From Escherichia coli (GTDB taxonomy: Bacteria > Pseudomonadota > Gammaproteobacteria > Enterobacterales > Enterobacteriaceae), in NCBI RefSeq assembly GCF_017348835.2, contig NZ_CP072315.1: DNA of 64,000 nt; one strand, written 5' to 3'. Each line of letters begins with the position of its first letter. The stretch's first letter is position 1. The position numbers are program-made. Positions 1 through 3,000 of this stretch are shown piece by piece.

Positions 1-3000
1 GATATCATTACCTAATAACTTGGTGAAAGAAAATCTGTAATTTTTAGTTAACTAAAATTAATAGTCTCAATACTGCTCAAGAATTCTTTTTTTACGTCCG
101 GTGTAAAAGGTATACGTTCAATGTATTTATAAAGTGTCGCAAATGTTTTGGGTTCAATGTTTCGGGAGATAATGTCATCAATCGGATCTTCGAACATATT
201 GATAAAGATATCGACATGCTGCTCTCCGCTTTCTGATGCCTTTGAAAGAAGACTGACCACTTCAATGTAGCGATTATCCTGCTCTGCAATGAACAACCAG
301 TGCCCTTCGTTAAAGGCGGGTGCAGCGCTGTAGCGTTTAACAACAATTTCTGAAAGATTATATCCTGCCTGATTCAGCAGATTATTAAAGTTGAGTTGAG
401 TTGAAATCACGTCTAACGTTTTCATAAAACCTCCTTTTCATCTGTACTTATTATACTGTTACCCAACCCCCAGCTAATAACCTCCCAGCAAATTTTCAGA
501 AAAAAAACACCGCCTTTTATTTAAGATTGAACACATCCTTTTTAAATACCAACAATGATTATGAAACCACAATGTAAGTGAAGCGCCATTATGGAAAAGT
601 AACTTTTGTGCAGCTCATAAATTTTATTTATTAGTTACGTTCCTTTGTCTTGTGGTCGAAGTTCATCAGGCGAGGCCTAAGAAGAATATGTGTGGTTTCA
701 GCCAATGCGGTGATCGGGCATTATAATTTGGTCGGGCTATTATACGTGGGTAAAGGTAGTGGTAGGGAGAGGATCAGGTTAAATTGCATTTTCCCGGTTG
801 CCTTCCCTGGCCTACCGGTTTCAGGTCAGACGCTAAGACCAGCGGTAATACTTAAAGTAGTCCTCATTTACAGCCAAAAACTCCCTTAAACCGTTCATTA
901 ATCCCTTTTCAAACGCTGTAACGATAAACCGGTATCCGTCCAGTGTTTCAATGTAGTAGATCCCGCCCGGTGTTATTCCAACATGCAACACCTCGGCTGT
1001 CATCATAAACTGGCCTTCCGGAAAATCATGCGACAGGTATATAAAACCCGTCGTGGCCGGTGCGGGTGTGGCATTCACTAAGACACCGTTAAACTGCTGC
1101 CCGTGCCTCGCCGGTACAAGCTCACTTCCCCTGGTTGACTTATCGAGCAGCCCCTTAACATCTTTTTGCTCTTTAGATGAGGTATAGCCCCGCACATCAC
1201 TCCCATCACCTGGGCGAGAGCCGGTGCCGACATGTGCAAGACGACGGTAAGCGCTGCGCATATTGATGTGGCAGGATGCCCCGGCTCTACCCTGAAGCCT
1301 TACGCCAAAATCTTCGCAAAGTAATAAAATCTGACGTAGCTGGTGTTCATACACGGACGCAGAAAGTGAAAGGTTGAAACTGGAAAAGGTCAGTTCTAAA
1401 ACCTTTTCCCGTTTGTCATTGAAATGTGCTTCCAGCCTGATGATTGGCTTTTCCGACATTGCAAAAGCTTTGTCCGTTGCTCTGTACCGGCATTCATCTC
1501 CGAAACATTCTTCAACAACGCTGGCTATAACCGTGTCGTGATCGCCATCTTCCGGAGCTGGCACAAAGATTTCAAATTGTGCCGGTGTCTCCGGCTCCAG
1601 CAGAACGGGATATAAACGCGGAGAATTAAGCAATGCGCATTCAGAATTAATGAGCTTAACCCAGGCGCTTTTGTCGTCCGGATCCTTAAGCTGCTGTCCA
1701 AGGTTATCGCAAAAGTCTACTATCTGACGGGTATGCTCATCCGTGACTGCACAGATCAGGTTAAGACCATGCGTGGCCATACTCAATTCCCGGGTTCGGG
1801 ACTGGGAATTGATCGACCAGGGGTTAAGTGAAAGCGAAATAGGGCTTATGGAAGGGACGACCGTCTCATTCTGCAAATCTGTAAGCTGGCAGTTCGCAGT
1901 AGGCTTCGGGGAAAGGGTACTAAATATGTAACTTGCCTGTTGTTTAGTACTGGCCTGGATATAAAACATCGCGTCCATGCTTGTATCCCGGGATGAAATT
2001 GAAAATAGCTTCATTTTTAACCTTAATGGATGAGCGATTTATAGTCATGTGCTGACAAATGGACATTATGTGCGCCATCATTCCATTCAAAGAATAATCG
2101 ATACTTAGAGTTTACTCGAATGGAGGAATAACGGTTTGACGTCATTCTTAAGCGTTCATAACGCAAGCTGTTGGATAATAACTCCCGCTCACTCTGGACA
2201 TTATCCAGCGTTTCGAGTCGACACAGAATCGCGTTAATAATTTCAGAAGGAATACCTGCCGTTGTTTTTCCATTACGGAAGAACTTTTCAAGCCGTCTGT
2301 CTTTAAATGAATGGATCATAGTTCCTCCGTAATAATTGACCTTAAAATTAAATTAAAAGGGCTTTGAATTAATGAATCCCTAAAATGCGGGCGGCGACTG
2401 CCAGCTGCTTATCACTTAACTGACGCTGGTGGGTTAAAGAAGACTTAAGGCTTTCCAGAAAATTATTACTGCTGGATTGCTGGGTGATTGCATCAACCAT
2501 TTTTTGATGAGATCTGCACCATGCATTGAACGCAGAGTTGTGGGCGTTTTCAGTCCTCAAACGCTCGTTTTGCAAGGATGCTGACACTTTGCGGGCAGCT
2601 TGAGCATTAATGCGGTACAGCGCATTCAGCGTGTAAGCAGTGCGGGTCGTTTCGAGGCTGTAACCCGTGGCTTTACAAGCCATACAGCGACTTCTATAAA
2701 AATGCTTACGCTCTCCCCGACCATTGCATTTATCGCAAAGAATACGAAAAGTATATTCCGCAGTACCTTTTACAGAATCAACACAGCGGATTTTTGCGCT
2801 GGAGATTTCAATTCCACTGCGATCATAATATTTGGTCATAATGTGATTCCTCCGGTTAGTTCTGGAGTAATCATGACAGAATGAATCTACTGGCTAATAA
2901 CCTGAGAGTAAATATTTTAAAAAAACATTGAGAGAGGGTCTGCAAATTTATACACGAAGGATTCAAATATAATTTTGTTTAAAAAATTAAGAGCATTCTG

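Follow-up and report, generated by a model that had tools for sequence, protein, structure and literature searches.

Genes for HigB-type toxins are normally followed by a gene for HigA, an antitoxin of about 100 amino acids (aa) with a helix-turn-helix (HTH) domain. In the 64,000-nucleotide (nt) stretch of Escherichia coli DNA analyzed here (contig NZ_CP072315.1, assembly GCF_017348835.2), which we call the window, a preliminary description had noticed a HigB-like toxin gene that departs from this arrangement, lying between a gene for a zinc-finger protein and a gene for a 393-aa protein of no recognized family. An orphan toxin, a toxin with a novel large antitoxin and a three-component module had been offered as options. 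Which of the two neighbors, if either, restrains this toxin?

Here, we report on the protein families and domain architecture of the three-gene module, its synteny, the selection that acts on it and its natural variants. The reading that we prefer, with a probability of roughly 0.45, is that the locus is a non-canonical HigB module in which the duplicated N-terminal part of the 393-aa protein would neutralize the toxin, and in which the zinc-finger gene is co-transcribed and may encode a regulator. Among the three options, a dedicated downstream partner is favored by linkage of the toxin and 393-aa genes that holds across IncHI1, IncHI2 and more distant lineages, by its position in the slot of HigA and by natural truncations. 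The partner protein and the three-gene layout are undescribed in the libraries and papers searched, and the toxin is a normal representative of an established family; a literature search, which took in PMC6764697, found no study of the trio locus.

A HigB-like toxin without HigA

Analysis of open reading frames (ORFs) reproduced the layout previously described for positions 833-2839 of the minus strand, with gaps of 49 nt between the zinc-finger gene and the toxin gene and of 8 nt between the toxin stop and the gene of unknown family:

2369..2839, minus strand: first gene, basic zinc-finger protein, 156 aa, isoelectric point (pI) 9.8; GGAGG Shine-Dalgarno sequence at 2849-2853
2023..2319, minus strand: HigB-like (RelE-superfamily) toxin, 98 aa, pI 9.7, PF05015; GGAGG Shine-Dalgarno sequence 5 nt before the ATG
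833..2014, minus strand: acidic protein, 393 aa, pI 5.5, candidate non-canonical antitoxin; starts 8 nt past the toxin stop

The 98-aa protein matches the Pfam family PF05015 (HigB-like_toxin) over profile positions 2-88 of 91 (E-value 5.4e-18; 65.7 bits, gathering cut-off 27) as well as phrog_3066, 'toxin of TA system', in PHROGs (E 8.9e-18), and aligns end to end with structures of Proteus vulgaris HigB (E 7.5e-6). We take the active site of P. vulgaris HigB to comprise H54, R73, D90, Y91 and H92; in the alignment of this match, R73, D90 and Y91 are kept as R74, D92 and Y93. A C-terminal block, SSxRVNSKYRLFFxWxxGxHNVxLSAHDYKSLxH, is retained across lineages. The protein is probably a ribosome-dependent mRNA endonuclease of the RelE/HigB fold, and the toxin activity predicted for it is plausible.

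Judged from the ratios of nonsynonymous to synonymous substitution rates (dN/dS), purifying selection acts on all three genes and most strongly on the toxin gene (0-0.04, compared with 0.10-0.13 for the zinc-finger gene and 0.14-0.15 for the 393-aa gene; relative to the IncHI1 version, 0.04, 0.10 and 0.14, respectively). Between two IncHI2 sub-lineages, the toxin protein is 100% identical at a dS of 0.065, and in diverged lineages it retains 60-83% identity where the neighboring proteins show 31-56%. This constraint bears on an alternative under which the HigB-like protein is an orphan or has been domesticated and arrests no growth, and the three genes are merely neighbors in a co-regulated IncHI backbone operon. 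We consider that alternative unlikely; that the toxin is the most constrained of the three genes is the first of several observations that count against it.

The preliminary description had named two ways in which a standard antitoxin might have been overlooked, a HigA/XRE domain within the 393-aa protein and a missed small ORF. Neither was found. The 393-aa protein matches no HTH, XRE or other domain in Pfam, NCBIfam, PADLOC or PHROGs at E<=1, and a Protein Data Bank (PDB) search with a profile of 15 homologues returned nothing meaningful; ten alternative small ORFs in the region, considered as candidates for a missed HTH antitoxin, gave zero Pfam matches. A HigA elsewhere in the 64-kilobase (kb) window was rejected by a phmmer search with a bona fide HigA, and an RNA antitoxin by the lack of any Rfam match or relevant tandem repeat. 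Searches of Pfam and NCBIfam revealed no SecB or chaperone domain of the kind found in toxin-antitoxin-chaperone systems among the three proteins, and the defense models of PADLOC-DB v2 matched none of the proteins at E<=1 (0 families). The earlier claim of a HigB-like toxin that lacks a HigA or HTH partner is thus upheld for the 393-aa protein, the small ORFs and the window.

The bona fide HigA, which also served as the positive control for HTH detection, is a 98-aa HTH_3 protein (E 5.4e-8) encoded immediately after the closest toxin relative outside the trio clade (P0042 of locus L012; 38% identity). Because this nearest outside relative has its HTH_3 HigA in the same position, the 393-aa gene occupies the HigA slot. 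The gap between the toxin stop and the large gene measures 8 nt here and 11-15 nt in loci L006 and L002; that a spacing of 8-15 nt was held over three deeply diverged lineages is likewise at odds with mere neighborhood.

A different arrangement was observed in Klebsiella pneumoniae pKP-13-14-NDM-9 (L018, positions 1501-2142), where a toxin relative (44% identity; PF05015, E 1.5e-10) is followed after 9 nt by a gene for a 106-aa partner with no Pfam or NCBIfam match and no similarity to the 393-aa protein. Comparison with the repeat unit of the 393-aa protein was negative as well, and the 106-aa protein was rejected as its relative. Toxin relatives of this type sit on Klebsiella megaplasmids, and about 800 plasmid records match the toxin at <60% identity.

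The window is IncHI2 backbone: its first 6 kb are 100% identical to many IncHI2 plasmids, with 1,121 matching PLSDB records (near mode), of which pD90-1, for example, is typed IncHI2A. A survey of other plasmids had been proposed earlier, and tblastn against the 72,556 plasmids of PLSDB revealed near-perfect co-occurrence of the trio in about 1,300 records: 1,299 with the toxin and 1,297 with the zinc-finger protein, each at >=60% identity, and 1,303 with the 393-aa protein. The records that bear the trio include IncHI2 and IncHI1A plasmids. The trio is also intact in metagenomic/plasmid contigs whose large protein is only 47% and 30% identical, the upstream flank of the 30% lineage differing from that of the window, and the gap between the zinc-finger and toxin genes is 40-52 nt in the lineages compared. 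In the 47% lineage (L006, positions 6295-7046 of a 232-kb contig), a TacA-like antitoxin and a GNAT (TacT-like) protein are encoded as a pair directly downstream of the trio, an insertion that identifies a site of recombination at the 3' boundary of the trio.

Architecture and natural variants of the 393-aa partner

The partner gene starts at ATG 2014, and its Shine-Dalgarno-like AAGG overlaps the toxin stop codon. We prefer this start to those of the Prokaryotic Genome Annotation Pipeline (PGAP), which assigns 381- or 315-aa products to identical DNA and so yields annotation differences only, because M1 and K2 are invariant and the 14 homologues align over 100% of their length. The PGAP names vary too on identical or near-identical DNA, between 'flavin reductase', 'flavin reductase family protein' and 'hypothetical protein', with both the reductase and the hypothetical label present in many records. 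We reject the flavin reductase identity: the protein matches neither Flavin_Reduct nor any other Pfam or NCBIfam family at E<=1, finds no PDB or fold support for it, and has nothing in common with that family beyond a small beta-rich C-terminal domain.

The 393-aa protein belongs to a small family (20 clusters out of a set of 5.8 billion proteins; 38 matches in an exhaustive profile search), with full-length homologues down to 30% identity. Its N-terminal part is an internal duplication, residues 1-119 corresponding to residues 132-250 (HHalign of 1-130 against 131-250: probability 96.8%, E 3.3e-10), and sub-modules within the duplicated repeats also match each other. An AlphaFold2 model built on the family alignment, with a mean predicted local distance difference test (pLDDT) score of 71 and low confidence at residues 244-274, displays repeated beta-beta(-beta)-alpha units and a beta-rich C-terminal part. 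The resulting layout is:

1658..2014, minus strand: repeat 1, residues 1-119, from HHalign; beta-beta-alpha and beta-beta-beta-alpha units in the AlphaFold2 model
1265..1621, minus strand: repeat 2, residues 132-250, from HHalign; the most acidic part (pI 4.8), kept in a lineage truncated by insertion sequence IS21
1118..1264, minus strand: basic linker, residues 251-299, pI 9.7, pLDDT 35-55 in the AlphaFold2 model
836..1117, minus strand: C-terminal domain, residues 300-393, a pleckstrin homology (PH)-like beta-sandwich plus helix and the best conserved part

Mean pairwise identity is 65% in the C-terminal domain, with 40% invariant columns, and 42-44% in the repeats, with 8-10% invariant columns; within the linker, R267, G269, D273, R275 and E282 are invariant. 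Toxin and partner carry complementary charge, with a pI of 9.7 for the toxin and 5.5 for the 393-aa protein.

The C-terminal domain also occurs on its own. Standalone homologues form about 25 clusters, mostly of 110-145 aa with a few longer members, whose relationship was confirmed by BLASTP and which have no Pfam family. Six loci of five such homologues (L008-L011, L014 and L015; 110-273 aa) all consist of same-strand arrays of small unknown genes. At L008, a 92-aa upstream gene overlaps the standalone homologue by 8 nt, and L009 and L014 have in common an upstream neighbor of 128/129 aa (59% identical).

About 59 records cover the locus partially, and the natural variants that follow are the cases inspected. 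In 23 conjugative Salmonella IncHI2 plasmids, most of them from human clinical samples (NZ_CP093406.1 and 22 others; L028, positions 1472-3441), IS21 splits the 393-aa gene after residue 250 at the same junction, with a 4-base-pair target duplication, and a 32-aa tail is added; the toxin is wild-type. The toxin is also wild-type in a Klebsiella IncHI2 plasmid in which IS1 truncates the partner after about residue 354, and on the chromosome of an Enterobacter hormaechei strain, a fragment of IncHI origin stops at residue 205 of the large gene, with the toxin and zinc-finger genes intact. In these cases, the C-terminal 140-190 residues are dispensable in the presence of an intact toxin.

Damage to the N-terminal part was found only alongside a damaged or deleted toxin. 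In two E. coli datasets that are independent of each other, the 393-aa gene shifts frame at residue 97 and the toxin gene at codon 13-14, the zinc-finger gene being intact; a Cronobacter plasmid has lost the toxin plus the first ~46 codons of the large gene; and a further plasmid has retained no more of the toxin than its first 52 codons and lacks the 5' end of the 393-aa gene. Other candidate variants were discarded: the apparent truncation in pYUXYEH3314-1 is identical DNA with another PGAP start, and pELE2-215, CP042639.1 and CP061234.1 carry many scattered indels of 1-2 nt, which we treated as probable assembly errors.

This pattern matches the expectation for an antitoxin with an N-terminal neutralizing part. 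It fits poorly with a harmless HigB-like protein among unrelated neighbors, as residues 1-205 were never lost in truncations with an intact toxin and the sole clear N-terminal frameshift observed is accompanied by a toxin frameshift. Conversely, truncation of the 393-aa protein does not visibly affect how the plasmids spread, which speaks for such harmless neighborhood.

The zinc-finger gene, the transcription unit and the plasmid setting

The CxxCxGxG protein upstream of the toxin was recovered as described earlier. Its motif, CxxCxGxG-x9-CxxCxxxG (C35xxCxGxG...C52xxC), precedes a helical C-terminal half, and all four Cys are retained in diverged homologues. The match to DnaJ_CXXCXGXG (PF00684) is weak (E 4.7e-4; 20.8 bits, cut-off 32.7) and represents a zinc-knuckle resemblance that does not imply membership of the DnaJ family. 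The best family match is phrog_4046 (E 3.9e-12), a family of unknown function that has phage members. A protein encoded at 27427-28143 had been called a paralogue. The term overstates the relationship, since the two are only distant homologues: both match phrog_4046 (E 3.9e-12 and 1e-3), and in a single BLASTP comparison this 238-aa protein was 19% identical to the zinc-finger protein (E 0.007).

Full-length homologues of about 30% identity, annotated as 'YuiA family', occur in 537 plasmids, mostly from Klebsiella. A single one of these plasmids, of Klebsiella and of type IncHI1B/FIB, was inspected; its 'YuiA family' gene comes third, behind a ParB-like gene (392 aa) and a tiny ORF, and no toxin is encoded in the vicinity. 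The 392-aa gene was considered as a relative of the 393-aa protein and rejected as ParB-like. The window holds a ParB-like (351 aa)/66-aa/238-aa zinc-finger unit at 27427-29413 (minus strand) in the same layout as this Klebsiella locus (L019, positions 1377-3441). Because both the 'YuiA family' homologues and the 238-aa relative occur without a toxin, the zinc-finger family is not toxin-specific.

Could the zinc-finger protein itself be the antitoxin, in antitoxin-first order and with an MqsA-like function, the 393-aa protein being unrelated cargo or an accessory? Zinc-binding antitoxins such as MqsA are known, the zinc-finger gene accompanies the toxin in 1,297 of ~1,299 plasmids, and it appears to be co-transcribed with the toxin, with no promoter motif between them. 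However, zinc-finger protein and toxin are alike in being strongly basic (pI 9.8 and 9.7, respectively), the gap of 40-52 nt forms no coupled junction, and the ~30% homologues and the 238-aa relative follow ParB-like genes in toxin-free settings. Moreover, the zinc-finger gene is intact where the toxin and 393-aa genes are both frameshifted, and the protein has no MqsA, HTH or other antitoxin match in Pfam or NCBIfam. MqsA, in which an N-terminal zinc domain is joined to a C-terminal HTH and which is encoded downstream of its toxin, differs from this basic, HTH-less protein with its upstream gene. We regard an antitoxin role as improbable, since the family occurs without a toxin and the gene has survived intact beside toxin and large genes that have decayed; the zinc-finger protein is probably a nucleic-acid-binding co-factor or regulator.

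Pattern scans delimit a transcription unit at its 5' side:

3117..3133, minus strand: terminator-like hairpin plus T-run past the upstream Ig-like gene, from a consensus scan (pattern match only); the putative 5' boundary of the trio transcription unit
2870..2902, minus strand: putative trio promoter, AGGTTATTAGC (2893-2902) and an extended -10-like TGTCATGAT (2870-2878) at a 16-nt spacing

The block of AGGTTATTAGC and TGTCATGAT lies about 55 nt upstream of the zinc-finger start and is kept in IncHI2, IncHI1 and L006, the surrounding spacer having diverged. The scans detected no promoter motif in the 49-nt or 8-nt gap and no terminator between the toxin and 393-aa genes. Because neither gap holds a promoter element, one transcript can be predicted, and the three genes are most likely co-transcribed from a single promoter. 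The next gene is divided from the 393-aa gene by a 408-nt spacer with a promoter-like element of its own.

The exact 10-mer GGTTATTAGC is present three times in the window, at 2893-2902 (minus strand), 473-482 (minus strand) and 6165-6174 (plus strand), where about 0.1 occurrences would be expected by chance (128,000 positions / 4^10). All three copies follow a T/A-rich stretch, have a -10-like hexamer 16-17 nt downstream and precede transcription units, namely the trio, a 125-aa gene and a plus-strand gene at ~6225. On this evidence, GGTTATTAGC looks like a common promoter or operator motif of the IncHI accessory region. Its presence at neighboring units is a point for the view that the trio is simply part of a co-regulated backbone.

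The trio is embedded in a long one-directional array of mostly small hypothetical genes (window 1-30000 and L013). This array contains orphan DNA methyltransferases, a PAPS-reductase-like gene, ParB-like genes, HNH, DUF3085, DUF957 and Hok, along with three large Ig-like proteins and the RepHI2 and RepB replicons. PMC6764697 reports that IncHI Ig-like proteins are necessary for conjugation, and the Ig-like proteins of the window may be related to them. The G+C content is 49.5% at window 1001-2000, within the 393-aa gene, compared with 39-40% in the adjoining 1-kb windows, which contain the toxin gene, the zinc-finger gene and the genes downstream; this contrast may hint at a separate origin of the partner gene.

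Such surroundings would also suit a three-component conflict system acting in phage or plasmid defense, anti-defense or establishment, in which the toxin is a nuclease effector restrained by the repeats, the PH-like domain senses a trigger and the zinc-finger protein regulates or targets. The array with its small unknown genes, orphan methyltransferases, HNH, PAPS-reductase-like and ParB-like genes is consistent with such a system, as are the high conservation of a C-terminal domain that is dispensable for viability, the standalone relatives of that domain in arrays typical of mobile-element accessory regions, and the phage members of phrog_4046. Yet no PADLOC model covers any of the three proteins, structural comparison with viral proteins gave no match, and a search of IMG/VR with one standalone homologue of the C-terminal domain was empty. 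We judge this scenario distinctly unlikely as a separate explanation; it overlaps the neutralization of the toxin by the duplicated repeats and differs from it only in the biological role.

Proposed mechanism and its significance

From the comparisons above, we infer how the module might work with respect to toxicity, binding, stoichiometry, regulation and biological role. A single promoter on the IncHI backbone would drive expression of the zinc-finger protein, the HigB-like toxin and the 393-aa protein in this order. The acidic 393-aa protein would have replaced the ancestral HTH HigA of ~100 aa in the same position and with equally tight coupling, and its duplicated residues 1-250 would bind and neutralize the toxin. 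The chain could thereby act as a single-chain pseudo-dimer that takes two toxin molecules, like a HigA dimer. The PH-like C-terminal domain would not be needed for neutralization and might serve a separate role, such as regulation, sensing or partner binding. The basic zinc-finger protein would bind nucleic acid and could supply the regulatory function that is missing from the HTH-less partner, and the module as a whole could function in plasmid addiction or another toxin-antitoxin-type process, for example defense.

A bolder version, which we find conceivable although we would sooner doubt than endorse it, posits that the 393-aa protein founds a new modular class of antitoxins. It would combine a duplicated toxin-binding pseudo-dimer with a conserved PH-like domain that is also free-circulating in mobile-element 'dark matter', and with a DnaJ-type zinc-finger regulator it would make up a HigB system of three components carried by essentially all IncHI1/IncHI2 resistance megaplasmids. 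The PH-like domain, as sensor or switch, would release the nuclease for addiction, defense or establishment control.

Several observations weigh against neutralization by the 393-aa protein, and some of them favor an inert HigB-like protein among conserved neighbors. Conservation of the catalytic positions known from P. vulgaris HigB is incomplete, with two substitutions, H54 to E55 and H92 to K94. Active sites differ across the RelE family, so these substitutions are no proof of inactivity. All occurrences are on related IncHI-type backbones, on which downstream synteny is conserved too, and the co-occurrence is not phylogenetically independent. The N-terminal repeats, to which we ascribe neutralization, diverge fast, being only 19-24% identical to the distant lineage in which the toxin still shows 60% identity, and the large protein is basic (pI 8.2-8.9) in that most distant lineage, so that charge complementarity is not universal. 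Family and profile searches found no recognizable DNA-binding domain for autoregulation in the 393-aa protein. At the six loci of standalone C-terminal homologues, the neighboring genes had no Pfam match and included no HigB/RelE or recurring toxin; because the standalone copies lack recognizable toxin neighbors, the C-terminal domain is not a dedicated antitoxin domain, and its appearance in non-toxin contexts suits a backbone operon as well. Finally, the sample of natural variants is small and partly clonal, the IS21 case being clonal.

Among characterized systems, HigBA of P. vulgaris Rts1 (PF05015 and PF01381) is the closest. The two share the PF05015 toxin, aligned over its full length to P. 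vulgaris HigB, the toxin-first order with a tightly coupled downstream gene, and a plasmid location. In contrast to HigA, the partner here has 393 rather than ~100 aa, lacks an XRE-type HTH and is not detectably related to HigA; in addition, the trio has an extra zinc-finger gene before the toxin, and the equivalents of H54 and H92 are E and K.

Three-gene toxin-antitoxin operons with a separate regulator are known from omega-epsilon-zeta and PaaR2-PaaA2-ParE2. The trio resembles them in its three co-transcribed genes and in that its regulation could rest on a separate small basic protein. It differs in having the order regulator, toxin, antitoxin, in lacking any sequence relationship, and in that the candidate regulator contains a DnaJ-type zinc finger and not a ribbon-helix-helix or HTH domain.

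Toxin families that swap unrelated antitoxin domains are known from PanA/DUF4065 and the NetFlax network. Similarly, the toxin fold studied here is paired with an HTH_3 HigA (L012), a 106-aa helical non-Pfam protein (L018) and the 393-aa protein, and partner replacement seems to be a trait of this toxin lineage. Unlike the PanA/NetFlax cases, the trio contains no DUF4065 or other known antitoxin domain, and its partner is large, duplicated and endowed with an extra conserved domain.

IncHI1 and IncHI2 plasmids rank among the main carriers of multidrug resistance in Salmonella, E. coli and Enterobacter, and the appeal of the trio lies in its prevalence on these clinically important plasmids combined with the unusual architecture of the partner. 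Were the toxin non-toxic, the locus would count as a conserved backbone operon of the ordinary kind, and nothing beyond the corrected annotation would be left. The IS21-truncated Salmonella lineage offers a useful natural truncation mutant of the 393-aa protein. If that protein is an antitoxin, it would found a new, structurally unusual antitoxin family and correct a widespread 'flavin reductase' mis-annotation. It would moreover provide a first starting point for the functional study of a small orphan domain family of uncharacterized mobile-element arrays and identify a targetable maintenance or conflict function of IncHI plasmids.

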